From a bacterium (GTDB taxonomy: Bacteria > Patescibacteriota > Patescibacteriia > UBA9934 > GWF2-40-263): 11,357 nucleotides of DNA. The notes below the pieces were generated by a model. The model was not told the DNA's origin and ran no database searches. It worked only from the letters and a program-made list of their open reading frames with translations. The DNA is taken from the NCBI GenBank assembly GCA_021789915.1, contig JAJYIV010000031.1:1-11357 (forward strand). Reading direction: 5' to 3'. Numbering within the stretch: position 1 is the first letter of the stretch; each line of letters begins with the position of its first letter. Below are positions 5 through 11,357 of the stretch, in pieces. A program made the position numbers and the translations under genes.

Positions 5-250
5 TCATGCGGGTTGGGCTTTCACGCGAATCCGGCCGACGAATTCCCCGCGATCCTGCGGAATAGGTTCTCCATCCGCAGCCAAGCTTTCGCAATATAG
101 GCGAATCGCATCCTCGGCCATGCGTTTCGCCTCGTCGAGCGTCGCGCCTTGGGTCACGCAGCCCGGCAGCGCCGGGACGGAAACGGCATAACCGCCTTCC
201 TCGGAAGGCTGGAACACGACGGTGAAATCGTAAATGCGGTCCGTTGCCAT
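5..250 (-). CDS. HicB-family (UPF0150) antitoxin-domain protein, 81 aa
   Basis: The ORF runs from ATG at 250..248 to TGA at 7..5. The sequence YAVSVPALPGCVTQGATLDEAKRMAEDAIRLYCES is typical of the HicB_lk_antitox/UPF0150 RNase-H-like fold. It has no C-terminal DNA-binding extension. No obvious SD. Confidence 0.65.
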   Translation of the reverse strand: MATDRIYDFTVVFQPSEEGGYAVSVPALPGCVTQGATLDEAKRMAEDAIRLYCESLAADGEPIPQDRGEFVGRIRVKAQPA

Positions 251-293: not shown

Positions 294-1865
294 TCAAATC
301 TCCTCGCGCTTCTCGCGCAGGTACGAAATCCAGCTCTCGATCACGCGGATGGCCGCCTTGAACGGCGCTTCGATGATGAAATCGAGGAAGAACAGGAAGA
401 CGTTGATGCGCGGCGCGCGCAGGGCGATCCAGCGGCCCGCCCGGACGATCGGCAGGAACAGCAGGTCGCCGAGGAAGCCGAGGAACGGACTGCCTGTCTC
501 CACGATGACCAGCTCGCGGCGGCCGTTGCGGATCTTCAGGCCGAAGAACGTCACCAGCGACAGGAAGAACAGGAACAGGATGATGGAGAAGACGTTGAAG
601 TGCAGCGCGTGCAGGAACCAGCTGATCGCGCCGACCGTCACGAGGAACATGATGCCGTACAGGGTCCGGAAGGCGACGGACAGGCCTCCGTTCGAGCGCC
701 CGGGGCGCAGCGTCACGGCGAAATCCTTTCCGGTCCCGAGGATGGCGTGCGTCTCCTCCAGGATTTTCCTGTTGTTCTTCTGCTCGGGAATACCCACCGT
801 CAGTCCCAGCACGGACAGCAACAGCGGATGGAAGAGGATATTGACGAGGAGCGGCCGGTCGTCGCTGGATTTCAGGATGAACTGCTCGTACGGCAATTCC
901 AGGACGAGCGCAAGCACGGATTTCGTGAACAGCAGGAAAAGCGCGGCGCGCACGACGCTGCGGCCCAGGCGCTTGCGGAAACGGTCGTAACGGCTTTCCG
1001 CGGCCTTGACGACGGCCGCGTCGAGCGCGCCCGCGTCTCCAGACGCAAGCGCCGCGGCGAAGGCGGCCGGATCGTCCTGGGCCACGTCGCGCAGCAGGTG
1101 GAAGACGACGGCATGGCGGCGCACCAGGCGGTACACGGCGTCGGCCGCCGGATGGCGCAGCTGGCGCTCGATGGCTTCCGCCACGGCCGGCAGCCGGGCG
1201 GAGATGTCGGACACCAGGGCGTCGCCCGCCGCCGCGGTCGGCCAGGCGGGATAATAGAGCGTGAACACGCGGAAGCGCAGCGTGGCGATGTTGGAGCGCA
1301 GCACGGAGCGGTGGACCGCGACATACAGCTGCAGGTCGCGGTCTTCCTCCTTGACCGCGGGGTTGGCCCAGACCATGCGCTGCTTCAGGGCGCGGTAGGC
1401 CAGGCCCGCCTCCGCCTCGTCGACGTAGGGCGGCGCCAGGGTGTACTCGACCTCCGTGGACATCACGTCCAGCAGCCAGTCGTACAGAAACCCCGCCTCC
1501 CGCCCCCCGGCGGCGGCGCGCGCGAACAGCGGCCGGTACTTTTCAAAGACGGCGGCGACGACGCCGACGGTCGATTCCGGAATTTTCTTGTTGGGAAGGT
1601 ACCGCGCCCAGATCAGCTCCCGCAGCACGTCGGCCGCGAGCGGCCGGGAGGCCTCGTCCTGGATGCGGCGCATCAGGATGCGCCGGATGGCGTTGCGGCG
1701 CATCAGGTGCTCCTCGTCGTATTCCAGGGTATTGCGGATCGCCTCATAGGCGGACGCCGCCGCCGACACCGTGTCGTTGACGGTGATGACCTCCCCTTCC
1801 GGAACGGCGGGAGGGCGGGCAGCGACGCGGATGGCGGCGAGCAGGCTGTCGAAGGGGGTGGACAT
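294..1865 (-). CDS. Large membrane protein of unknown function: ~330-aa helical soluble N-domain plus 4-5 C-terminal TM helices
   Basis: Long minus ORF with stop TGA at 296..294. The most likely start is ATG at 1865 (MSTPFDSLL...). The upstream in-frame Met at 1928 would translate the intergenic repeat region (FYDFYVLRL) and was discounted. The C-terminal 200 aa contain strongly hydrophobic segments (LVNILFHPLLLSVLGLTVGI, IMFLVTVGAISWFLHAL, FSIILFLFFLSLVTFFGL, FLGFLGDLLFLPIV, INVFLFFLDFII). No canonical SD; a C/G run precedes the ATG. Confidence 0.6.
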   Translation of the reverse strand: MSTPFDSLLAAIRVAARPPAVPEGEVITVNDTVSAAASAYEAIRNTLEYDEEHLMRRNAIRRILMRRIQDEASRPLAADVLRELIWARYLPNKKIPESTVGVVAAVFEKYRPLFARAAAGGREAGFLYDWLLDVMSTEVEYTLAPPYVDEAEAGLAYRALKQRMVWANPAVKEEDRDLQLYVAVHRSVLRSNIATLRFRVFTLYYPAWPTAAAGDALVSDISARLPAVAEAIERQLRHPAADAVYRLVRRHAVVFHLLRDVAQDDPAAFAAALASGDAGALDAAVVKAAESRYDRFRKRLGRSVVRAALFLLFTKSVLALVLELPYEQFILKSSDDRPLLVNILFHPLLLSVLGLTVGIPEQKNNRKILEETHAILGTGKDFAVTLRPGRSNGGLSVAFRTLYGIMFLVTVGAISWFLHALHFNVFSIILFLFFLSLVTFFGLKIRNGRRELVIVETGSPFLGFLGDLLFLPIVRAGRWIALRAPRINVFLFFLDFIIEAPFKAAIRVIESWISYLREKREEI

Positions 1866-1873
1866 AGGGGGGG

Positions 1874-1962
1874 AACGTAGAAGGCGTAGAACGTAGAAGT
1901 CGTAGAAGACGAAGAAGTGACTCAGCACTTTCTCCGCGTTCCCACGCTTTCTACGTTCTACG
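1874..1962 (-). repeat. Imperfect inverted repeat built from tandem 7-9-nt units (aaCGTAG...); 14-nt perfect arms 1885-1898 / 1949-1962
   Basis: cgtagaacgtagaa (1885-1898) is exactly complementary to ttctacgttctacg (1949-1962). Additional degenerate units (aaggcgtag, aagtcgtag, aagacgaag) flank the arms. The element sits between the glycosyltransferase stop (1987) and the ATG at 1865. Confidence 0.55.
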
Positions 1963-1963
1963 A

Positions 1964-1982
1964 GCCCGGCCGCAGGCCGGGC
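1964..1982 (-). terminator. GC hairpin 4 nt after the glycosyltransferase stop (gcccggc-cgcag-gccgggc); U-tract weak
   Basis: Perfect 7-bp GC stem with a 5-nt loop. On the minus RNA it is followed by UCGUAGAACGUAGAAAG, which is A/U-mixed rather than a clean U-run. It may be a weak terminator or part of the larger structured element. Confidence 0.35.
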
Positions 1983-1986
1983 GATT

Positions 1987-3345
1987 CTACACGATCAGCG
2001 GCAGATTCGGCAGCGGGCTCTTGCGCCCGAGCACCAAATCCTCGATGCGGTACGTGCCGTGGGTCGGCGCCTCAATATAGCCGTTCCACGCCATGCGCGC
2101 CACGCCGCCCGAATCGATCCAGTCGAACAGCCACTCGCTCGCATAGCGCGGATCGCCCTGCGGCACGCCGCCGCCGACGTATTGCAGCCAGACGCGGTTG
2201 AACTTTTCCTGCGATCCGATGGGCGGGGCGATGATGATGGGCAATCCGACGCCGGTATAGAACGACAGTTCGCTTGGCTTCGTCCAGAGGATGTCCGTCG
2301 TCTCGAGCAGGCGGTTGAAGCCGGAAAAGTACGCGGGGCGGGATTCGAAGAGCGGGATGAGCAGGCTTTCGCCCAAGGCGTCGTGCAGATGCAAATCCTC
2401 CGCGGCGCGCCGGTAATAGGCGGCCACGTCCTGCCGCGTGCCCGAGGAAAGGACGAAGCGCAGCTCGCGGCGCGCGATCTTGTGGCGCAATCCGCGCATG
2501 ATTTCCACGCCCAGGCGGCGCTGGGCCCCGGCTCCGCCGACGCTGTACATCATCGTCAGCGGGTGGCGGTCCTTGGGCGGCGAACAGTATTCCCTTCCGA
2601 GCTCGTGGCCGATCGTCTCGGCATAGCGCGTCATGAAAATGCCCTCCGGATCCAGGTTGCAGATGCGGGCCATGAGCTGGCGTTTGGCGAACACGGCCTG
2701 TTCCCCGCCGACCAGCTCCTTCGGCAGCGGGAAGCCCGTCAGGATTATGCGCTCCTCCTGCACCCCGTACAGCTTGAGGCGCTCGACCACGCGGCCGTTG
2801 GAGGCGATGTAGGTGATGCGGCTACGCTTGGGGTCGAGCGGCGCCCAGGCGCGCGAGACGTCGGCGTCCGTCGTGATGCAGTAGATGTCGCCGGGATAAT
2901 CATGCACGTCGGCGAAGAACGCCACGGTGAAAAACGTGGTCACGAGCGGCAGCGGATGGCGGGCCAGCTGCTCGATGAGGTGGCGGCCGAATCCGCGGTT
3001 GATGGAATCGTAGATGGCGCGGACCTGGATGATGGGACGGGACAGGTCGCGGCGCGGGTAGAATTCCGGGATGCGCTGCAAATCGTCCATCATCCCGAAC
3101 AGCGCCGACCCGATCACCGGCACCGGCTTCAGGCGCGAGATGAGCTCGTACAGGATGCGCGTGCGGCGCCACCATCCGCGATCCGACGCCGGAATGCCCG
3201 GATAATCGTTGGCGGTAACGACCTCGCCGCCGGCCAAATCCCGCAACGCGAACGCCGCGCGGCTGTGGCCATACCCCATGTTCACGTCCACCACCCAGGC
3301 GCGGCGGGAACGGCCGTCATGCGCATGCGGCACCGGCTCGGACAT
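1987..3345 (-). CDS. MGDG-synthase-like (GT28-type) glycosyltransferase, probable diacylglycerol/lipid glycosyltransferase, 452 aa
   Basis: The N-terminal VVDVNMGYGHSRAAFAL matches the GxGH..AA G-loop of the MGDG synthase/UgtP-like N-domain, and a C-terminal GT-B half follows. The ORF runs from ATG 3345..3343 to TAG 1989..1987. It lies 32 nt downstream of the LOG stop. A GGAG lies 17 nt upstream, which is distant. Confidence 0.75.
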   Translation of the reverse strand: MSEPVPHAHDGRSRRAWVVDVNMGYGHSRAAFALRDLAGGEVVTANDYPGIPASDRGWWRRTRILYELISRLKPVPVIGSALFGMMDDLQRIPEFYPRRDLSRPIIQVRAIYDSINRGFGRHLIEQLARHPLPLVTTFFTVAFFADVHDYPGDIYCITTDADVSRAWAPLDPKRSRITYIASNGRVVERLKLYGVQEERIILTGFPLPKELVGGEQAVFAKRQLMARICNLDPEGIFMTRYAETIGHELGREYCSPPKDRHPLTMMYSVGGAGAQRRLGVEIMRGLRHKIARRELRFVLSSGTRQDVAAYYRRAAEDLHLHDALGESLLIPLFESRPAYFSGFNRLLETTDILWTKPSELSFYTGVGLPIIIAPPIGSQEKFNRVWLQYVGGGVPQGDPRYASEWLFDWIDSGGVARMAWNGYIEAPTHGTYRIEDLVLGRKSPLPNLPLIV

Positions 3346-3377
3346 AGCGGGAAAAAGTTCGGCTCCTTTAAACCTTT

Positions 3378-4130
3378 TCAGAAAAAGGCCCGGTCCGGCG
3401 CGGACCGGATCAGCTCAAAGGCCTCGTCCGCCGAATCGACCAGACGGTAAATCGACGTGTCCTCGGGAGAGATCGTCTTGTACTGCCGGCCCATCGTCTT
3501 TTCGATCCACGCCAAGAGCGGCGACCAGAAGTCCTTGCCGACCAGAATGATGGGAATGCGCTGCATCTTTTCCGTCTGGATGAGGTTGGTCAGCTCCGCC
3601 ATCTCGTCCAGCGTTCCGAGACCGCCCGGAAAATACACGTAGGCCATGCTGGCGGCGGCCAGCATCACTTTGCGCGTGAAGAAATAATGGAAGCCGCGGC
3701 TGTGCCGGACATACGGATTGATGCGCTGCTCGTGCGGCAGCTCGATGTTGAGGCCCAGGGACGGCGCCCCCGCCTCGTAGGCGCCGCGGTTGGCCGCTTC
3801 CATGATGCCGGGACCGCCGCCGGTGATGACGGTGAAACCCCCCTTGCCCAGTTTGTGCGCCAGACGGCGGGCTTCTTCATACCATGGGTGGTCCGGCTGG
3901 AAGCGGGTCGAGCCGAAGATGGAAACGGATTTCCCCGCGTGCGAAAGGAATTCAAACCCCTCGACGAATTCCGCCATGATGCGGAAGACGCGCCACGTGA
4001 TGTCCGACAGCTTGGTCGGCAGATCGGGCGAATAGCCGTTGTGGCGCTCTTCCTCCGACAGCGGCACGCGGATGCTCGCCGCGGACGGCAAGGGGGCGCG
4101 GGAAGACGCGGCGGAAGATGGGTTCGCCAT
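3378..4130 (-). CDS. LOG-family (TIGR00730) nucleotide 5'-monophosphate phosphoribohydrolase/nucleosidase, 250 aa
   Basis: Carries the hallmark LOG motifs GGGPGIMEA and PGGLGTLDE and the Rossmann-like core VSIFGSTR...ILVGKDFW. The ORF runs from ATG 4130..4128 to TGA 3380..3378. It starts 9 nt after the nuclease stop, so it is likely co-transcribed with it. Confidence 0.85.
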   Translation of the reverse strand: MANPSSAASSRAPLPSAASIRVPLSEEERHNGYSPDLPTKLSDITWRVFRIMAEFVEGFEFLSHAGKSVSIFGSTRFQPDHPWYEEARRLAHKLGKGGFTVITGGGPGIMEAANRGAYEAGAPSLGLNIELPHEQRINPYVRHSRGFHYFFTRKVMLAAASMAYVYFPGGLGTLDEMAELTNLIQTEKMQRIPIILVGKDFWSPLLAWIEKTMGRQYKTISPEDTSIYRLVDSADEAFELIRSAPDRAFF

Positions 4131-4139
4131 AGGCGTCCA

Positions 4140-5642
4140 TCATACCATTTTTTCCGCGGTCCGTCGTCGCGCGACTCCCCCGCGCCCTTCCCCCAGCCAC
4201 CGGCACAGGTACTCCGTCGCCACGACGTCGTCCTCATTGTAATCGACGATGTCGCGCAGCACGGCGCGGTCGCCCGTCTCCAGCCACTGCTCGTACCAGA
4301 ACACGCTCTGCGCGCCGCCCGCCTTGGCGTGCCGCCAGTGGTAATTGAGGAATTTCGACTTGGCGATGTCCTTGATCGAATAGAAATACAGCGGGAAGAC
4401 GACGGATTTCTTCACGACGGCGAAGAGGTCGACGTAGCGCGACGCGAAGCGCCGGAACGAAGGCCGGTCTTCGATCTCCTTCGCCAAACGGAGCGTGCGC
4501 GCGCGTTCGTAGTCCGCGAAATGATACACGACGAACGACGGCGGGTCGGGCAACAGGTCCGTCCAGTCGAGGAACTCCTTCCACATCCGGTCCTGATCCT
4601 CCGGCCGTTCGGCCAGGAAATAGAGGTAATAGCCCTCCGCACCCTGATCGCGCATCTGCCCGATCTTCGCGTAGCGGCGCTCCGGATCGCCCGTGATCCA
4701 GAAGCCGAACAGGTACTCGAGATCCAGCAGCGGATCGCCCTCGATGTCAAAATGGATCTTGAGAGGCGCGTCCGGCAGATCCGGCGCGGCGCGCCAGATG
4801 ACGCTCCCGTCCCGCAGCGACCGCGCCTGGAGCTTCAGCCGCTCGAGCGTGGGCGGCGGGGCGTACGGGATCTCCGGCATCCGCGCCGCATCCATGAGCG
4901 CCGCGTCGCGCACCGTGCGCACGCCCGCCGCGCGCAGGGCCGAAAGCGCGCGCGGGTCGGCGCCGTAGAGCAGCGCCACGTCCTGCGCCTCCTCGGCCGC
5001 GCGCACGCACTCCTTGAACCACGGCGACTGCTTGCACTTGCTGGTGAGACGCAGCGGCGGCTTCTCGCCCTGCACGATGCCGGCCACCGTGCGCGCCGTC
5101 GCGCGGCATTTCGCGAGCAGGCGCGGCTCGAGCGCCAGCGGCAGGCGCTCGCTGTCGACATTGATGATCGACGCCGCATGCGGCCGCACGCCCTGGACGC
5201 GCTGCAGCACCAGCGCGTAGAAGGCGAGCTGCAGCGCCTGCGTGTCGTGGATGGTGTGCGACGACTTGATGTCGCACGGCGCGTACATCCAGTCGCCGAA
5301 GGACGAACGGCCCGGCTTGCGCTCCAGCAAGTCGGGGCGCCCGCGCCAAAGCGCGCCTTCGATCTCCGCTTCGATCACGCCCTGGTAGATGCGCGGCGCG
5401 CCCTGCGCCATCAGCGCGCGCGTCTGCGCCGCCGCCGTTTCCATGTCGATGGTGAGCACCGCCTGCACGTCCAGGCCCTTGAGGTATTCCTGCTCGCGGA
5501 CGACGCCCTGCTCCAAAAGTTTTCGCGCCAGCTCCGGCATATCCCCCTTGCGCGCCGGGTCACCGTAGCGGTCGTACCACAACCAGTGCGGGCAGGCCGC
5601 GTACTGGTAGAACATCGAAGGAGTGATGACGGGGAGGGACAT
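4140..5642 (-). CDS. TM0106-family RecB-like nuclease: N-terminal Cas4-like PD-(D/E)xK domain with a 4-Cys Fe-S cluster, fused to a C-terminal RNase-H-fold (DnaQ-like) exonuclease domain; 500 aa
   Basis: N-terminal Cys in YQYAACPHWLWYDRYGD. Putative DxK at APCDIKSS. RecB-type QxxxY in QLAFYALVLQ. Cys triad CRATAR...(23)...CKQSPWFKEC. C-terminal LKIHFDIEGDPLLDLEYLFG matches the PF13482-type predicted 3'-5' exonuclease. The ORF runs from ATG 5642..5640 to TGA 4142..4140. Confidence 0.8.
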   Translation of the reverse strand: MSLPVITPSMFYQYAACPHWLWYDRYGDPARKGDMPELARKLLEQGVVREQEYLKGLDVQAVLTIDMETAAAQTRALMAQGAPRIYQGVIEAEIEGALWRGRPDLLERKPGRSSFGDWMYAPCDIKSSHTIHDTQALQLAFYALVLQRVQGVRPHAASIINVDSERLPLALEPRLLAKCRATARTVAGIVQGEKPPLRLTSKCKQSPWFKECVRAAEEAQDVALLYGADPRALSALRAAGVRTVRDAALMDAARMPEIPYAPPPTLERLKLQARSLRDGSVIWRAAPDLPDAPLKIHFDIEGDPLLDLEYLFGFWITGDPERRYAKIGQMRDQGAEGYYLYFLAERPEDQDRMWKEFLDWTDLLPDPPSFVVYHFADYERARTLRLAKEIEDRPSFRRFASRYVDLFAVVKKSVVFPLYFYSIKDIAKSKFLNYHWRHAKAGGAQSVFWYEQWLETGDRAVLRDIVDYNEDDVVATEYLCRWLGEGRGGVARRRTAEKMV

Positions 5643-5648
5643 GGGAAA

Positions 5649-5721
5649 GCCTTTAGCCTTTAGCCGTTAGGAGAGAATAAGGCCAAATCATCCTAACAGC
5701 TAAAAGCCAAAGGCTAAAGGC
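5649..5721 (-). repeat. Long imperfect hairpin from tandem heptamers (gcctttag/cctttag/ccgttag vs ctaaaag/ccaaagg/ctaaagg) immediately upstream of the nuclease ATG
   Basis: Arm 5649-5671 (gcctttagcctttagccgttagg) pairs with arm 5692-5721 (cctaacagctaaaagccaaaggctaaaggc). There are 13+6 identical positions around one internal bulge. The loop is agagaataaggccaaatca. The element is strongly AT-rich compared with its surroundings and ends 6 nt from the ATG, so it would occlude the weak AAAGG SD. Confidence 0.55.
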
Positions 5722-5754
5722 TAAACAAAAATCCGTCGCTGCTGTCAGCGACGG
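5722..5754 (-). terminator. Rho-independent terminator for the 148-aa gene
   Basis: Perfect 9-bp stem ccgtcgctg-ctgt-cagcgacgg (5733-5754). On the minus RNA it is followed by AUUUUUGUUUAG, from plus-strand ctaaacaaaaat at 5721-5732. Confidence 0.6.
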
Positions 5755-5829: not shown

Positions 5830-6276
5830 CTAGGCCGCGCGGGGGATAAACAGATCGGCCGTGCCGCCAAGCCCGTACCGGCGAGTGAGCGCCACCAGCT
5901 TGGCCCGCTGGCTGTCATCGACCTCCTCGGAGAGGGAGCGCGCGATGGCACGGATGGCCACGGTGAGGCCCGACCTTTTGGCCTTGATCGGCGACGCCCG
6001 GTGGATGGCCAGCGCGTTCGCGAAGACGCGCTGTTGGAGCTCGACCGATGGCGCGGGCGCGTCGGTCTGCAGAAGGGCGGCGAGCGTGCTCGCGGCCAAG
6101 CCGTGCTCCCCCTCGAGCGTGAAACGCTCGACGGCGGCCACGGTCGGCGCCACGGGCGCGACGGCGACGCCCTTGCGCGGCTTGGGCGGCGGGGCGTTGT
6201 CGCCCGGACGGAAGCCGTAGTAAGGGGGCCTCTTGCTGCGGTTCACCTGTGTACGGTTCGTGCTCTGCGTGCTCAT
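5830..6276 (-). CDS. Hypothetical protein, 148 aa, basic Pro-rich N-terminus; unknown function
   Basis: ATG 6276..6274 is preceded by AAGGAG (rc of 6282-6287) with a 5-nt spacer, a good RBS. The ORF-track start at 6282 is GTG, and MLM then translates GTG-CTG-ATG. Stop is TAG at 5832..5830. The protein has plausible composition and hydrophobic periodicity. Competing overlapping frames are Arg/Ser-rich junk. Confidence 0.55.
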   Translation of the reverse strand: MSTQSTNRTQVNRSKRPPYYGFRPGDNAPPPKPRKGVAVAPVAPTVAAVERFTLEGEHGLAASTLAALLQTDAPAPSVELQQRVFANALAIHRASPIKAKRSGLTVAIRAIARSLSEEVDDSQRAKLVALTRRYGLGGTADLFIPRAA

Positions 6277-6402
6277 CAGCACTCCTTGTTGCGTCCACGC
6301 GTGGACGGCTCGTCCGACGGGACAAGCGTCGCGACTATACGCGAAAACGCCGCGGGCGTCAAGGCACCCCGCGGGCCGACGGCGGAAGCGTCCGAAGTCC
6401 TC

Positions 6403-6991: not shown

Positions 6992-8845
6992 CTAGGCCTT
7001 GGGGGGCTCGGGAGCGGCCGACATCTGGCGCTGCAGCATGTTGGCGAGCAGGACGTCGGCGATCGTGCCGCCGTTGCCCTGGCCCGTTCCGCCGCCGACC
7101 ATGATCTGCGGCACGAGCTGCACCTTGTTCTCCGCGAGCGCGCGGCCGACCTCGATGACGGCGTAGTTCTGCGGGCCGATGGCATCCGTCTTCTTCTGGA
7201 TGACCTGCGCCTCGGCTTCGCCGACGGCCAGAACGCTCCTGCCCTTGGCCTCGCCGACCGCGACGAGCACGTGCGCGTCGGCGTCGGCCTGCGTCTTCTT
7301 CGCCTCGGCCTCGCCGGCCGCCTTGGCCTTGAGCGCGTTGCCCTCGCCCTCGGCCTTCTTCACGGCCGCGTTGGCCTGGAACTCGGCGATGGCGACGGTG
7401 CGTTCGGCGTCGACGACCTTCGACTGCGTGTCGGCGAGAGCCTTGGACTGCTCGAGCTTCTGCCGCTGCTCCTGCGCGTCTCGCTCGGTCTCGTAGGTCG
7501 TCTTCTGCTCCTGCGCGATCTTGCGGTCCGTCAGGGTCTTCATGAGCTCCTCCGGCGGGACGATGTCGCCGATCAGCGTGTCGACGGCGACGATGTTGTA
7601 GTCCTCGAGCGCCTTGGCGATGGCGGCCCGAGCCTCCCCCTGCCGCTCCTCGCGCTCCTTAAGGAAGGAGATGACGTCCGCACCCTGCGCGGCGTTCCGG
7701 AAGTAGTTGCCGATGGTAGGCTCGAGCACCTGGGTCACCAGGTTGGCCACGGTCCCGAAGCGCGCGATGACCTTGGGAGCGTCCGTGCGCGGGATGTGGA
7801 TGATCTGGCTCACGTCCAGGTTGTACCGGAAACCGTCGGACGAACGCACCGTGATGGTGGAGAGGCGCTCATCGAGCCTGTGCGCCTCCGACTTGCCCGT
7901 CGCCCAGTTGAGCACGACGTTGGCCGTGGGCACGCACTCCACCTTGTGGGTGCGAGGGTTGATGGGGTACTTGCCCGGGTCGAGCGGCTCGACGCAGACG
8001 CCCTTCTGCCCCTTCTTCACGAGGTTGCCGTGCTTGAAGGTGTCGCCCGTGACGTCCTGTCCCTCGTCGCCCACGTAGGCGATGACCACGCCGGCATGCG
8101 CGATAGGCACCTCCGTCATGTCCGCCTCCTCGATGGACACGAAGTCCGTATTGAGGAAGTAGCGGCCGGCCAGCATGACCTGCTCCTGCAAGCCCTTGAA
8201 GCCGCCGCCGTCCAGGAAGGCCTGGCCATCCTGAAACATGTTGTGGCCCGGAATCTCCTTGCCGGCGATCTCACCGGTGGGCAGCGGCTTGCCCTCCTTC
8301 GTCGTAACGATGCCGACCTTGCCCCTTCCGATCTCGACCGCGTCCCGCAGTTGGATCTTGAAGATCTTGGTGTTGATGCGGAAGGTACCGGGCGGAAGGA
8401 CGGGAATCTGGGACCCGCGCTCGCCGCCGTTCTGCAGGAAGGCACGCGCGTCTTGGAAGGAGCTGCACTCGACCTTCTTGCCGAATATGCGGCCGGAAGG
8501 CAACGGAATACCGTCCGCGGCGCTGATGATCCCGACGCAACCGTCCGGAATCACGACGAATCTCTCGATCGAGATGATGTATTGCCAGGGCCAGTAGCCC
8601 CAGTGCATGCCGGGCGCCAGCGTGTCCGCCTGGATGCCGGCTTCGCCGTTCAGCGCGATGATCTTGCCGTCGGGCAGCGCCTTGTACGCACCGAAGAGCA
8701 CGAACCTCTTATTCACGATGCCCAGCGAGTCCTGCGGGATCATCACGACCCCGAATAGCCGGAGGATCACCTTGTAGCCGATCAAGGCGAGCATGATGGG
8801 AACGACCCACCAAAACGCAAGTACGTGTTCCACGACTGACCTCAC
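6992..8845 (-). CDS. Flotillin-family SPFH/band-7 protein (YqiK/FloT-like), 617 aa, with N-terminal TM helix
   Basis: N-terminal hydrophobic VLAFWWVVPIMLALIGYKVILRLFGVV, then an SPFH core, then a flotillin Ala/Glu-rich region (KAKAAGEAEAKKTQADADAHVLVAVGEAKGRSVLAVGEAEAQV) and C-terminal MVGGGTGQG. The start codon at 8845..8843 is GTG. The alternative ATG at 8794 would cut the TM helix. Stop is TAG at 6994..6992. Confidence 0.88.
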   Translation of the reverse strand: MRSVVEHVLAFWWVVPIMLALIGYKVILRLFGVVMIPQDSLGIVNKRFVLFGAYKALPDGKIIALNGEAGIQADTLAPGMHWGYWPWQYIISIERFVVIPDGCVGIISAADGIPLPSGRIFGKKVECSSFQDARAFLQNGGERGSQIPVLPPGTFRINTKIFKIQLRDAVEIGRGKVGIVTTKEGKPLPTGEIAGKEIPGHNMFQDGQAFLDGGGFKGLQEQVMLAGRYFLNTDFVSIEEADMTEVPIAHAGVVIAYVGDEGQDVTGDTFKHGNLVKKGQKGVCVEPLDPGKYPINPRTHKVECVPTANVVLNWATGKSEAHRLDERLSTITVRSSDGFRYNLDVSQIIHIPRTDAPKVIARFGTVANLVTQVLEPTIGNYFRNAAQGADVISFLKEREERQGEARAAIAKALEDYNIVAVDTLIGDIVPPEELMKTLTDRKIAQEQKTTYETERDAQEQRQKLEQSKALADTQSKVVDAERTVAIAEFQANAAVKKAEGEGNALKAKAAGEAEAKKTQADADAHVLVAVGEAKGRSVLAVGEAEAQVIQKKTDAIGPQNYAVIEVGRALAENKVQLVPQIMVGGGTGQGNGGTIADVLLANMLQRQMSAAPEPPKA

Positions 8846-8949: not shown

Positions 8950-10098
8950 TCACCGCACCGGCGCATATCCGCCCGGCACGCCATCGGGGGACAGGACGAT
9001 CTGCCACAGATTGTTCTGCCGCGCGCGGAAGGAACCGGCGCACGACAACAGGTAAAAGCGCCACATGCGGAAAAACCGCTCGCCGTAATGCTCCTTGAGG
9101 GCGGGCCAGGCGCGCTCGAAGTTGGCGTCCCAGGCCATGAGCGTCCGATCGTAGTCGACGCCGAAGTTGTGCCAGTCCTCGAGCACGAAACGTCCTTCCG
9201 CGGCATGGGCGAGCTGCACGGCAGACGGGATCATGGAGTTCGGGAAGATGTATTTTTCGATCCACGGATCCGTCGAACGCACGGAACGGTTGCCGCCGAT
9301 GGTGTGCAGCAAAAAGAGCCCGCCGGGCTTAAGGCAGCGGCGCACGACGGCCATGTACGTGCCGTAATTCTTGTAGCCGACGTGCTCGATCATGCCGAGC
9401 GACACGACGTGGTCGAACGTTTCGCGCAGCTCGCGGTAATCCTGCAGGCGGATTTCCACCGGCAGCCCCGCCGCGCGTTCGTCCGCGAGCGCCTTCTGCT
9501 CGCGCGACACCGTCACGCCGACGACGTGCGCACCATACCGCTGCGCAGCGAAAATCGCGAAGCTCCCCCAGCCGCAGCCGATGTCCAGCACGCGCTGCCC
9601 CTCCTTCAAACCGATCTTGCGGCACACCAAATCCAGCTTGGCCTCCTGCGCCTCGTCGAGCGTCATGTCCCCGTGAGCCGAAAGATCGCCGTTTTGCAGG
9701 GGTCGCCAATAGGCACAGGTGTACGTCATGCGCGCATCCAGCATGGCGCGGTACAAATCGTTGCCGAGATCGTAATGCGCCTCGCCGACGCGGAAGGCGC
9801 GGCGCTTGTTCTGCCGGTTCGTCAGCGCGGCGAGCAGCCAATCGACCGCGAGCGCGGCGCTCGGCCGCAGCGCGCGGCGCACGTCCGTGCGCAGCAGGCG
9901 CGCGACCAGTTCGTCCAGCCGGTCGCAATCCCACCAGCCGTCCATGTACGACTCGCCAAAACCCAGCGTGCCGTCCGCAAGCACGCGCGCGTAAAACCGG
10001 TCGTCGCGCACCTGCGGATCCCAGGGATCCGAACCGTTCATTTGAACGCCGGCAGCGGACAGGACGTCGCGTATGGCTGGCGGAAAAGAAACGGGCAT
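8950..10098 (-). CDS. cfa: Cyclopropane-fatty-acyl-phospholipid synthase family SAM-dependent methyltransferase, 383 aa
   Basis: Carries the SAM-binding VLDIGCGWGSFAIFAAQRYGAHVVGVTVSREQ, plus VSLGMIEHVG and CLKPGGLFLLHTIGG, which are characteristic of the CFA synthase/mycolic acid cyclopropane synthase family. The probable start is ATG 10098..10096 (MPVSFPPAIRD...), with GGAGG upstream. The ORF-track start at 10182 would translate the structured IGR. Stop is TGA at 8952..8950. Confidence 0.88.
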   Translation of the reverse strand: MPVSFPPAIRDVLSAAGVQMNGSDPWDPQVRDDRFYARVLADGTLGFGESYMDGWWDCDRLDELVARLLRTDVRRALRPSAALAVDWLLAALTNRQNKRRAFRVGEAHYDLGNDLYRAMLDARMTYTCAYWRPLQNGDLSAHGDMTLDEAQEAKLDLVCRKIGLKEGQRVLDIGCGWGSFAIFAAQRYGAHVVGVTVSREQKALADERAAGLPVEIRLQDYRELRETFDHVVSLGMIEHVGYKNYGTYMAVVRRCLKPGGLFLLHTIGGNRSVRSTDPWIEKYIFPNSMIPSAVQLAHAAEGRFVLEDWHNFGVDYDRTLMAWDANFERAWPALKEHYGERFFRMWRFYLLSCAGSFRARQNNLWQIVLSPDGVPGGYAPVR

Positions 10099-10108
10099 AT
10101 CTTCTGAG

Positions 10109-10241
10109 GAAGCCTCCGAAAATGGATGGATTTTCGTTGAGCGGGACGGACGCCATCCGAGCCGTAGCAGCCCCGCCTGCATGCAGGCGGGGGTGGCGTC
10201 AGGGACCCGCGAGACGAAAAGACGCCATTTTCGGAGGCTTC
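10109..10241 (-). promoter_or_regulatory. Structured cfa leader: 17-nt anti-SD segment perfectly complementary to the cfa SD region, enclosing a 22-nt perfect palindromic GC hairpin
   Basis: Plus 10225-10241 (ccattttcggaggcttc) is the exact reverse complement of 10109-10125 (gaagcctccgaaaatgg). On the minus RNA, 5'-GAAGCCUCCGAAAAUGG (which overlaps the stop codon of the upstream gene) can pair with CCAUUUUCGGAGGCUUC, which contains the GGAGG SD 10-16 nt before the cfa AUG. Between them lies ccccgcctgcatgcaggcgggg (10171-10192). The gacgccat motif occurs twice (10149-10156 and 10221-10228), each imperfectly complementary (7/8) to gtggcgtc at 10194-10200. Confidence 0.45.
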
Positions 10242-11357
10242 TACTGATTCAAATCGTTGATGTCCGCCTGATACGTGTCCATGGTGGCCAACACCTCGTC
10301 GCCGTAGAAGCGGTAGCGCGTGTTCGTCGACCCGCTGAAGTAGCGCATCGCGGCGTCCCATTCGTCCTGCCGCGTGCCGCCCGCCGCCCCGTCGGCCGCG
10401 AGCTTCAGGCCCGCCGCGACGAAGGCGTCGCGGATGTCCCACGGATCCGGCACGGAACCGGTGACGGCCTGGACGCGCGGCATCCATCCGATCCACGTGG
10501 ACGGGATGAACTGCGCGGGCCCCATGGCGCCGCCCCAGCCGATCCGGTTGCCGTAGCGGTCGTGCATCGGGCAGGACACGGGCGTCACGTCCGTGTCGCG
10601 GCCGAGCTGCTGCGTGATCTGGACGAAAGGCTGCTGGTCGCGGTCGGGCTTCATCACGACGCGCCAGCTTTTGTCGGGCGGATCGCCGGGGCGGTTGCAC
10701 GTGCCGACGTTCTTCCCCAGGTTGGATTCCTGCGTCAGGATCGCCAGAAGGAACGCCGTCGGGACGCCGGTCTGCTGCGACACCCAGTTGGCCGCCTGCA
10801 CGGCCTGGCCGAAGGTGATCTGCGTCGACACGCCGAGCAGTTGATAGATGCGGCTGCGGATGTCCGCCGCCTGTTTGGTCGTGTCCGCCAGCTGGGCCTG
10901 GTACGCGCTTTCCTTGCCCTTGGTGGCGACGAGCAGGTCGTTCTGATCCTGCAGGTCGGACGCAAGCTGGGATTTCTGGAGCGTCTGGATGGACAGCAGC
11001 TGCTGCGCGTCGTCCTGTTCCTGCGCCAGCTTCTGCTGCTGCGCGTTGAGGTCGTCAGCCACTTTCTGCGCCTTGTCCAGCGTCGACGTGAGGCTCGACG
11101 AGAGCTCCGTGTCGCGTTCGACTTCCGTGAGCGCCGACGACAGGTTGCCCTGGTCGATCACGGCATACAGCCACTGCGGCTCCCGGTCGCGCTGGTCGAT
11201 GAGCGCCAGGATCTGCGACATCTGGTCGCGCAAGTCGCTTTGCGTGACGAGGTTCGCGGCGATGTCCTGCCGGGTCTGGTCCATCTGCGCCGCGACGTCG
11301 TCCAGTTTGGCGTTCGTCTCGCGGATTTGGAGGTTGAGCGACGCCTGCTTGACGGCC
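10241..11357 (-). CDS. Coiled-coil protein with C-terminal MltB-like (family 3) lytic transglycosylase domain; N-terminus lies outside the window
   Basis: The C-terminal domain has the catalytic-Glu motif AILTQESNLGKN and GAMGPAQFIPSTW, matching the ESxxG and GAMGQxQFMPS(T)W motifs of MltB/Slt35. The N-terminal >170 aa are Gln-rich heptad coiled coil. The reading frame stays open through 11357 (...AVKQASLNLQIRETNAKLDDVAAQMDQ...). Stop is TAG at 10243..10241. Confidence 0.75.
   Translation of the reverse strand, partial: AVKQASLNLQIRETNAKLDDVAAQMDQTRQDIAANLVTQSDLRDQMSQILALIDQRDREPQWLYAVIDQGNLSSALTEVERDTELSSSLTSTLDKAQKVADDLNAQQQKLAQEQDDAQQLLSIQTLQKSQLASDLQDQNDLLVATKGKESAYQAQLADTTKQAADIRSRIYQLLGVSTQITFGQAVQAANWVSQQTGVPTAFLLAILTQESNLGKNVGTCNRPGDPPDKSWRVVMKPDRDQQPFVQITQQLGRDTDVTPVSCPMHDRYGNRIGWGGAMGPAQFIPSTWIGWMPRVQAVTGSVPDPWDIRDAFVAAGLKLAADGAAGGTRQDEWDAAMRYFSGSTNTRYRFYGDEVLATMDTYQADINDLNQ

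Follow-up and report, generated by a model that had tools for sequence, protein, structure and literature searches.

A TM0106-type nuclease, a type-IIa LOG enzyme and a DUF6938 protein as probable lineage-specific neighbours in an Uhrbacteria-like genome

The window analysed here, a stretch of 11,357 nucleotides from a patescibacterial (CPR) genome that resembles those of the Uhrbacteria, carries ten genes, all ten on the same strand. The three minus-strand open reading frames under study encode, from 5' to 3', a TM0106/COG2251-type nuclease of 500 amino acids (4140-5642), a type-IIa LOG (nucleoside 5'-monophosphate phosphoribohydrolase) of 250 amino acids (3378-4130), and a DUF6938 protein of 452 amino acids (1987-3345), predicted to be a GT-B-fold, GT28-like (MGDG-synthase/MurG-like) glycosyltransferase. 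The earlier note on this DNA is borne out with respect to these coordinates and to the 9-nt and 32-nt spacers, and its identification of a nuclease, a LOG enzyme and a glycosyltransferase proves right. No other spacer in the window is as short as these two, which counts against a mere juxtaposition of genes; however, the tight packing, though present, is not peculiar to the trio, as the whole window is co-directional. Beyond the coordinates considered in that note, the minus strand also encodes a conserved, all-helical membrane protein of 523 amino acids without known family (294-1865), and the nuclease gene is preceded by a gene at 5830-6282. No CRISPR array, tRNA or Rfam element was found in the window.

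The nuclease matches TIGR03491 over its full length (308 bits, cutoff 97), RNase_H_2 (PF13482, E 1.5e-25) and Cas_Cas4 (PF01930, 26.3 bits, cutoff 22.7). It thus shares the architecture of the TM0106 family of RecB-like putative nucleases (TIGR03491/COG2251), with an N-terminal DUF83/Cas4-like PD-(D/E)xK domain and a C-terminal 3'-5' exonuclease domain of the PolB-exo/DnaQ-like type (PF13482). A helix-hairpin-helix-like segment may be placed centrally, as the homologue P0062 has a precomputed PF14520 (HHH_5) annotation beside Cas_Cas4 and RNase_H_2. The DxK, QxxxY and DIEG motifs named by the earlier note are all located: the Cas4-like domain contains GRPD101-104 (D104), D124-I-K126 (D124xK126) and Q138xxxY142, and the exonuclease domain FDIEG298-302 (D299xE301), D405 and Y468NEDD472 (Y468xxxD472). 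The catalytic motifs of both domains of the family are kept, and both active sites are intact as judged from sequence. However, the four-cysteine set that had been claimed is incomplete: three family-conserved cysteines are present (C17, C203, C212), whereas the fourth position, a cysteine in 36% of 81 homologues, is Ala219. Majorek et al. (2014, PMC3985635) place the TM0106 family in the RNase H-like superfamily as cluster F.13. A solved structure for the family was not detectable by sequence, and its spread over CPR, Chlamydiae and Gammaproteobacteria is housekeeping-like.

The LOG protein matches TIGR00730 (128 bits, cutoff 96), so that both family calls of the earlier note lie above cutoff, and PF03641 (E 5e-30). 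Its closest solved structures are TT1465 of Thermus thermophilus (1wek, E 9e-66), followed by the type-II LOGs 5zi9 and 5wq3, the latter being CgLOGII (Cg1261) of Corynebacterium glutamicum. With TT1465 and CgLOGII it has in common the PGGxGTLDE motif with the type-II Asp (PGGLGTLDE168), the FFxRK motif with the catalytic Arg (FFTRK150) and a type-II-like N-terminal extension, and it also contains GGGPGIM104; its N-terminal tail of about 40 residues, however, is poorly conserved. By these motifs the protein is a canonical type-IIa LOG. Both TT1465 and CgLOGII hydrolyse AMP, yielding adenine along with ribose 5-phosphate (Seo & Kim 2017, PMC5379747). An assignment as PpnN was rejected (31.7 bits, cutoff 450), and so was a divergent conflict-system SLOG, given the far stronger matches to housekeeping LOGs and the type-IIa motifs. 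The Rossmann-like SLOG fold is common to this protein and to the SLOG proteins of conflict systems at the superfamily level, but the matches to the DprA-like SLOG proteins of PADLOC PsyrA and ShosA are marginal (E 2e-4 and 9e-3) and extend over 60-90 residues, and the hint of a conflict system in the earlier note is therefore not borne out.

The third gene was described earlier as a lipid glycosyltransferase. The GT-B fold is confirmed by modelling (AF2, pLDDT 83.7, pTM 0.84), in that Foldseek returns Arabidopsis MGD1 as the best match (4wyi, E 5e-7), followed by UDP-GlcNAc 2-epimerases and MurG, with TM-scores of 0.4-0.6. By sequence, however, the protein matches DUF6938 (PF22053, 40.6 bits), a family separate from the GT28-type lipid glycosyltransferases (plant MGD1, MurG, UgtP/YpfP), to which its sequence likeness is marginal: it scores 19.5 bits with the diglucosyl-DAG-synthase (UgtP) model, for which the cutoff is 500, and E 0.054 with PDB 9wde. 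It has an N-terminal G-x-G-H loop (GYGH24), and its relatives are fused to or adjoin GT21 and MGDG-synthase-like genes; the homologue P0411 is a GT21 fusion, and P0457 matches MGDG_synth. A role in lipid glycosylation is therefore suggested by fold, fusions and neighbours, and not by the family match. In ypfP-ltaA, the gene for a membrane protein, the flippase LtaA, lies directly 3' of ypfP, and the arrangement at DUF6938 is similar, although its 3' membrane protein is not MFS, unlike LtaA, and no structural match was found for it.

Strong RNA structures occur on both flanks of the trio. Of the two intrinsic terminators said to bracket it, the upstream one (5733-5754, minus strand) agrees with the consensus: nine pairs, seven of them GC, are followed by the T-rich tail ATTTTTGTTT, and the hairpin folds at -17.5 kcal/mol (z -2.7). 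This hairpin is located downstream of the gene at 5830-6282. Next to it lies a long leader hairpin (5648-5722, minus strand; inverted repeats I3 and I11) with a stem of about 25 bp composed of GCTAAAG/AGCCTTT heptamers, which stops a few nucleotides before the ATG of the nuclease and is more stable than any of 200 shuffles (-41 kcal/mol, z -6.5). The downstream terminator (1964-1982) does not hold up, as its 8-bp GC stem is followed by TCGTAGAAC without a T-run and the terminator scan made no call there. It is part of a structured spacer between the DUF6938 and membrane-protein genes (1873-1982, minus strand; -60.7 kcal/mol, z -6.8), in which a long hairpin with CGTAGAA heptamers (1873-1962) directly follows the GC hairpin; the equivalent spacer of a close relative (L003) contains a related inverted repeat. 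Gene tables were read for this junction in four relatives (L084, L165, L167, L168); there the membrane-protein gene overlaps DUF6938 or follows it within 38 nt, and the unit is therefore not closed there. A further terminator-like hairpin with a T-run (3389-3409, minus strand; nine pairs, seven GC, tail CCTTTTTCTG) extends over the final codons of LOG and its stop, and may partially terminate transcription between LOG and DUF6938, although its stability against shuffles is not significant (z -1.5). Terminator-like sites are mildly enriched in the window as a whole (15 versus 8.7 +/- 3.1 expected). The structures on both flanks suggest that the trio may be a single transcription or processing unit, and I infer that its three genes are probably co-transcribed in the source genome.

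The distribution of the nuclease was followed in 80 species-level dereplicated genomes with a homologue. LOG, DUF6938 and the membrane-protein gene stand beside it in only three of these (L003-L005), whose nucleases are the closest relatives (at least 58% identical), and of the other loci, 71 have a downstream flank of 1 kb or more, none of them with a TIGR00730 LOG near the nuclease. The synteny of the trio, whose complete absence from other genomes was to have spoken against an operon, thus exists in close relatives, but is confined to one narrow Uhrbacteria branch. The other neighbours of the nuclease are variable, comprising housekeeping and repair genes: cyclophilin (17 of the 80 loci), SecDF (12), an HD-domain protein (10), and LexA, another PD-(D/E)xK nuclease and MetK (9 each). 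All seven LOG-adjacent nucleases found fall into one paralogous clade of a neighbour-joining tree, separate from two clades with nucleases of other Uhrbacteria, and the genome DAISXX01 has one nuclease of each type (L004, L076). This pattern is consistent with one event in which a nuclease paralogue was inserted upstream of LOG.

A different picture is seen for LOG and DUF6938. LOG is the gene immediately upstream of DUF6938 in each of the 12 Uhrbacteria-type contexts, an invariance that was counted against mere juxtaposition; the two are separated by 2-15 nt in the six relatives with gene tables, compared with 32 nt in the window. Seven of these contexts have the nuclease, and the five that lack it are Uhrbacteria contigs with LOG, DUF6938 and the membrane protein. 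The contexts share a long backbone (HU-HflX-L28-...-LOG-DUF6938-membrane protein-GH-like-...-RNR). In the genome of the window the upstream part is rearranged and the block from nuclease to membrane protein is retained, which again counts against mere juxtaposition. In Uhrbacteria the membrane protein regularly accompanies DUF6938 on its downstream side, and the GH-like (TIM-barrel) gene of Uhrbacteria, also found on the window's contig beyond HicBA, has homologues in the sister loci, with 33-37% identity (E 1e-56 to 1e-81). Neither LOG nor nuclease was found near DUF6938 in 79 more distant loci, and LOG stood beside it in none of the 59 whose upstream flank is 1 kb or longer; recurring neighbours in the 79 loci are GT21 (14), EamA (11), a GH42-like protein (10), a second MGDG-synthase-like glycosyltransferase (9) and PlsC (3). 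DUF6938, the membrane protein and the GH-like protein therefore form the more deeply conserved unit, with LOG as a neighbour specific to Uhrbacteria and the nuclease as an insertion specific to a sub-clade.

The earlier note proposed that the trio may be one defence, stress or salvage module; on this reading the nuclease would degrade nucleic acid, LOG would destroy or salvage the nucleotides and the glycosyltransferase would add a membrane step. The tight spacers and flanking structures, the trio order kept in seven related contexts, the intact nuclease active sites and LOG catalytic motifs and the nearby HicBA toxin-antitoxin pair would all suit such a module. However, the nuclease-LOG adjacency belongs to one clade, hence to one event, and is missing from 77 of the 80 nuclease-bearing genomes and from the five of 12 Uhrbacteria contexts where LOG-DUF6938 lacks the nuclease; the LOG is of the canonical housekeeping type, the nuclease elsewhere adjoins genes such as LexA, and PADLOC matched no defence system, returning domain-level Cas4 matches and marginal SLOG-level matches (E ~2e-4). 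The module is thus very improbable, with the caveat that missing synteny does not prove missing interaction. Even harder to credit is a solo Cas4-type nuclease serving CRISPR adaptation or a mobile element, with its neighbours as cargo: the PF01930 match and the PADLOC Cas4 match (E 4e-12) point that way, but the cas4 model TIGR00372 stays below its cutoff (43.7 bits against 65), the window is without cas genes or a CRISPR array, the region has neither an integrase, a transposase nor a tRNA at its flanks, and the family carries a fused exonuclease domain and has the distribution of a housekeeping protein.

Alternatively, the real operon could be the Uhrbacteria-specific LOG-DUF6938-membrane protein unit, with or without the GH-like gene, in which LOG is tied to envelope glycoconjugate synthesis, for instance by recycling a nucleotide by-product or supplying ribose 5-phosphate or base, and the nuclease is an unrelated insertion. 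I regard this as unlikely, though worth keeping in mind. The position of LOG directly upstream in every Uhrbacteria-type context, surviving flank rearrangement and the insertion of a histidine kinase or the nuclease, argues for it; however, the same genomes share the longer backbone of unrelated housekeeping genes, and the adjacency therefore has little discriminating power. The 59 distant loci with enough flank and no adjacent LOG include 11 sister loci (~540-635 bits), the terminator-like hairpin at the LOG 3' end speaks against the unit in the window, and LOG is not known to be linked to GT-B enzymes by any biochemical logic.

On balance, a lineage-specific juxtaposition is the probable explanation: three separate functions, probably co-transcribed, within a long co-directional Uhrbacteria-like array. 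A TM0106/COG2251 paralogue would have entered the position upstream of LOG a single time, in one Uhrbacteria sub-lineage, and its most likely role is to process DNA ends during repair or recombination. By analogy with TT1465 and CgLOGII, I infer that LOG would hydrolyse nucleoside 5'-monophosphates at the N-glycosidic bond, yielding a base along with ribose 5-phosphate, and may serve housekeeping nucleotide catabolism or salvage. DUF6938, the 523-amino-acid membrane protein and the GH-like protein would probably make or remodel an envelope glycolipid or glycan, as fold, fusions and neighbours suggest. The trio does not look like a new defence or salvage system; as its genes stand together only in a narrow Uhrbacteria branch, they appear to be inherited neighbours.

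The ten genes of the window (G+C about 65%) are all co-directional on the minus strand, and the three of interest lie exactly where the earlier note had placed them: the 500-aa nuclease at 4140-5642, the 250-aa LOG protein at 3378-4130 and the 452-aa DUF6938 protein at 1987-3345, with spacers of 9 nt between nuclease and LOG and 32 nt between LOG and DUF6938. The window is contained as identical sequence in a 28-kb ENA metagenome contig (ERZ27233565:k141_1830706), and for all of its proteins the named homologues belong to Candidatus Uhrbacteria or to other Patescibacteria (the CPR). For these tightly packed genes it had been proposed that nuclease, LOG and glycosyltransferase form a functional module in defence, stress or salvage, and the distribution of the genes speaks against this. 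All three were found together in 3 of 80 genomes when approached from the nuclease and in none of 79 distant loci when approached from DUF6938; no three-gene synteny recurs across divergent lineages, and all positive cases belong to one nuclease clade.

On the nuclease side, a scan with an alignment query, taking one genome per species (GTDB), yielded 80 loci with 32-65% identity. Searching these with all window proteins (tblastn and phmmer), I found LOG, DUF6938 and the 523-aa membrane protein encoded downstream of it in L003-L005 only, the closest relatives, whose nucleases share 58% identity or more; among the other 77 loci, none of the 71 whose downstream flank extends for 1 kb or more has a TIGR00730 LOG. 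One parcubacterial locus (L061) has an SLOG cluster-4 (LDcluster4) gene 1.5 kb from the nuclease, which is of a different family and which I treat as a chance neighbour. A fixed conserved partner is not apparent either, as clustering of 899 ORFs from the 80 loci gave cyclophilin as the top neighbour in just 17 of them, followed by SecDF (12), an HD-domain protein (10) and, in 9 loci each, LexA, another PD-(D/E)xK nuclease and SAM synthetase.

In a neighbour-joining (NJ) tree of 81 nucleases, from L003-L082, L083, L163 and L166, the seven LOG-adjacent nucleases form one clade placed among those of Doudnabacteria and other CPR, and the other Uhrbacteria nucleases fall into two distant clades. 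This greater proximity to Doudnabacteria and other CPR than to the remaining Uhrbacteria suggests, on the tree, a lateral acquisition. Since all seven fall into one clade, vertical descent from one acquisition or one duplication is indicated, and the adjacency of nuclease and LOG, having a single origin, counts as one observation and not as seven. Genome DAISXX01 contains both nuclease types, one adjoining LOG (L004) and one elsewhere (L076). Uhrbacteria-type genomes can thus hold two TM0106 nuclease paralogues of distant clades.

Within Uhrbacteria, where DUF6938 is 62-83% identical, 12 contexts of the Uhrbacteria type could be read. LOG is located immediately upstream of DUF6938 in all 12, with spacers of 2-15 nt in those six relatives that have gene tables against 32 nt in the window, and the membrane protein (window 294-1865) directly follows DUF6938 in 10, an inserted histidine kinase separating the two in the other 2. 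The proposed order of the trio is kept in seven contexts (the window, L003, L004, L005, L083, L163 and L166), but the remaining five (L084, the JGI 3300072015 contig, L165, L167 and L168) lack the nuclease. The contexts share a long backbone, which comprises S41 peptidase, NUDIX, flavokinase, HU, HflX, L28 and DUF7282 upstream of LOG, then LOG, DUF6938, the membrane protein and a GH-like protein, and finally a pyridine-nucleotide oxidoreductase, a small RNase_H_2 exonuclease and ribonucleotide reductase. Because so many unrelated genes are held in common, the adjacency of LOG and DUF6938 among these contigs is mostly inherited gene order.

The small exonuclease is a stand-alone RNase_H_2/PolB-exo-like protein of about 190-215 aa (L083 16134-16712, L084 13165-13812, L165 11410-11979, L167 11463-12032), and is encoded immediately upstream of ribonucleotide reductase in these four loci and in the JGI 3300072015 contig. 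On the window's contig, a HicB/HicA toxin-antitoxin pair (window 5-250, minus strand; 15393-15862 on L001, a 17-kb stretch of the same contig) splits the membrane-protein gene from the GH-like gene; the two genes adjoin each other in the further Uhrbacteria contigs examined. Upstream of the cluster, also on the minus strand, a 617-aa SPFH/Band-7 protein (6992-8845), a cyclopropane-fatty-acyl-phospholipid (CFA) synthase (8950-10182) and a coiled-coil protein with a short SLT-like motif (10241-11284) stand where the other examined contigs have HU-HflX-L28-DUF7282. The synthase scores 585 bits to PRK11705, and its presence is notable in a CPR organism presumed to obtain its lipids by scavenging.

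Beyond Uhrbacteria, the DUF6938 family comprises about 668 clusters at 50% identity, and a metagenome scan with distant members gave 80 loci (L085-L164). L163, the sole Uhrbacteria-type locus among them, has the complete nuclease-LOG-DUF6938-membrane array. The other 79 (59 of them with an upstream flank of 1 kb or more) contain neither LOG nor nuclease, and the membrane protein is found in L155 only. The neighbours that do recur in these 79 loci are GT21 (14), EamA transporters (11), a GH42/GH10-like TIM-barrel protein (10), a second MGDG-synthase-like GT28 (9) and PlsC (3), with examples at L088 326-1471, L119 7314-8450, L132 1530-3502 and L134 2020-5904; one homologue, P0411, is a GT21-DUF6938 fusion protein. 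In four distant loci an ATP-grasp_ST/MATCAP fusion and a 7TM_transglut protein also adjoin DUF6938. The GH-like protein of the distant loci is homologous to the one encoded downstream of the membrane protein in Uhrbacteria, of which the window's contig has a 332-aa homologue just beyond HicBA. From these recurrent neighbours and this homology, the association conserved most deeply is that of DUF6938 with the membrane protein and with the GH-like protein, a context suggestive of an envelope glycolipid or glycan.

As for the proteins themselves, the assignment of the nuclease to the TM0106 type holds, with a full-length match to TIGR03491, the TM0106 family of RecB-like nucleases (308.3 bits against a cutoff of 97.45, residues 10-483 of 500), a C-terminal RNase_H_2 domain (PF13482, E 1.5e-25) and an N-terminal Cas4-like domain (PF01930, 26.3 bits). 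Mapping of motif positions from alignments located the DxK, QxxxY and DIEG motifs that the earlier note had asked for: the PD-(D/E)xK/Cas4-like site is intact (D104, 99% conserved; D124-I-K126; Q138xxxY142), and so is the PolB-exo/DnaQ-like exonuclease site (D299xE301, 100%; D405, 99%; Y468xxxD472, 99%). The Fe-S cluster held by four cysteines, as in Cas4 and AddB, had to be given up, since conserved cysteines are limited to C17, C203 and C212, and the fourth column is Ala219, with Cys there in 36% of 81 homologues; some homologues (P0101, P0107, P0110 and P0119) lack Cys at positions 17 and 203, and three of these also lack Cys212. A sequence search found no solved structure for the nuclease, and a literature search found nothing on TM0106, TIGR03491 or DUF6938, with COG2251 turning up solely in papers on the classification of superfamilies. 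COG2251 is assigned by Majorek et al. 2014 (PMC3985635) to the PolB-exonuclease-like predicted 3'-5' exonucleases fused to DUF83. The two nuclease polarities, a helix-hairpin-helix-like linker and the occasional LexA neighbour lead me to infer a role in DNA end-processing or repair.

The LOG assignment is likewise sound (TIGR00730, 128.2 bits against a cutoff of 96.35). The protein has the motifs PGGLGTLDE (168-176), FFTRK (150-154) and GGGPGIM, with the catalytic Arg and Glu and, ahead of that Glu, the Asp that marks type-II LOGs; the first two correspond to 170-PGGFGTLDE-178 and F152/F153/R155 of CgLOGII. Its nearest solved structures are TT1465 (E 9e-66) and type-II LOGs, and TT1465 and CgLOGII hydrolyse AMP, giving adenine along with ribose 5-phosphate (PMC5379747). 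By family and motifs, the window protein is thus a type-II LOG and a predicted phosphoribohydrolase acting on NMPs. It is not PpnN, which has an architecture of about 450 aa with regulatory domains, whereas the LOG protein has 250 aa and scores 31.7 bits against the cutoff of 450 of the PpnN model NF038390.

For the third protein, noted earlier as a lipid glycosyltransferase, the fold bears out a glycosyltransferase and the sequence family does not. PF22053 (40.6 bits) is the only family passing for the DUF6938 ORF; profile search gave no membership in PF06925/PF04101 or the UgtP equivalog, and the diglucosyl-DAG synthase model PRK13609 matches very weakly (19.5 bits, cutoff 500). A distant homologue, P0457, reaches PF06925 at E 3.5e-5 with 24.4 bits, slightly under the gathering score of 25. 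The AF2 model (pLDDT 83.7) has a two-Rossmann GT-B fold with 85 PDB matches at E <= 1e-3 in Foldseek, the best 50 of which are GT-B enzymes or UDP-GlcNAc 2-epimerases; Arabidopsis MGD1 is the top match, followed by UDP-GlcNAc 2-epimerases and MurG. By sequence, the best solved structure reaches E 0.054 only. A lipid acceptor, diacylglycerol or another membrane lipid, is tentatively predicted from the neighbours of homologues (GT21, PlsC, the second MGDG-synthase-like GT and membrane proteins). The model of the 523-aa membrane protein is confident (pLDDT 80.5) and all-helical, and the structure search returned no PDB counterpart for it.

The trio had been thought to be bracketed by two intrinsic terminators. 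The upstream one (5754-5733) is confirmed as a 9-bp hairpin followed by ATTTTTGTTT, which matches the consensus; the downstream element (1982-1964) is a GC hairpin of 8 bp followed by UCGUAGAAC, and with no T-run and no call by the terminator scan it does not qualify. Both spacers contain long hairpins on the minus strand, one of heptamer repeats (GCTAAAG/AGCCTTT) at 5648-5722, ending immediately ahead of the nuclease ATG (-41 kcal/mol, z -6.5), and one of CGTAGAA/TTCTACG heptamers at 1873-1962 (-60.7 kcal/mol with the adjoining GC hairpin, z -6.8). A third, intergenic hairpin at 10109-10241 (minus strand) has a perfect 17-nt inverted repeat (-81 kcal/mol); against shuffles the three range from z -6.5 to -8.6. 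Each sequence occurs once on L001, none of the three matches Rfam, and a related inverted repeat, CGTAGAACGT, is found in the equivalent spacer between DUF6938 and the membrane gene of L003, the closest relative. The three hairpins may act as operators, or as REP-like elements that mark transcript ends or serve in processing. With large hairpins in both spacers, the trio is flanked by strong RNA structures in the window genome; the one downstream falls short of a canonical terminator. A further terminator-like hairpin with a T-run (3389-3409, minus strand) fits the consensus and overlaps the last codons and stop of LOG; its stability is not significantly above that of shuffled sequence (z -1.5), and it could partly uncouple DUF6938 transcription from LOG. 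In the four gene tables read (L084, L165, L167 and L168), the DUF6938 and membrane-protein genes overlap or are at most 38 nt apart, so that the ancestral gene array continues past 1987.

PADLOC-DB v2 matched no defined defence system by its component proteins: the nuclease gave Cas4 matches at the domain level only, LOG gave marginal PsyrA/ShosA matches, and DUF6938, the membrane protein and the neighbours tested gave none, which argues against an anti-phage system. Nor is LOG a divergent SLOG of the conflict type. The nuclease does not qualify as a CRISPR-associated Cas4: its TIGR00372 score of 43.7 bits is below the cutoff of 65, and the window contains no cas genes and no CRISPR-like array; nor does it have any Rfam element or tRNA, so that a CRISPR, mobile or RNA element is rejected as well.

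The earlier observation was therefore largely accurate and its interpretation as a module unsupported: the trio is a lineage-specific juxtaposition of genes. A nuclease paralogue would have been inserted once upstream of LOG, which in turn neighbours an envelope gene set centred on DUF6938 in Uhrbacteria specifically. That the nuclease and LOG are functionally coupled is very unlikely, and coupling of LOG with DUF6938 inside Uhrbacteria is possible, if rather improbable. Alternatively, the invariant LOG-DUF6938-membrane-GH-like array of Uhrbacteria could represent a new pathway, in which a type-II LOG would have a part in making or recycling an envelope glycoconjugate; the nuclease paralogue could then have been recruited in the window's sub-lineage to feed nucleotides from scavenged DNA to LOG. 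I consider this quite doubtful; if true, it would tie the scavenging of nucleic acids to envelope synthesis in a way specific to CPR.

In compact, co-directional CPR genomes tight spacing is weak evidence of functional coupling, and the trio illustrates why the neighbourhood has to be checked. The families of its proteins are known but in part uncharacterised, and the proteins are new members of them. For DUF6938, a description as a GT-B enzyme of GT28-like type can now be given, with a genomic context that suggests glycolipid synthesis; in Uhrbacteria the conserved 523-aa membrane protein without structural match regularly accompanies it. The TM0106/COG2251 dual nuclease occurs widely, in CPR, Chlamydiae and some Gammaproteobacteria, and may be an end-processing enzyme in genomes without RecBCD/AddAB.
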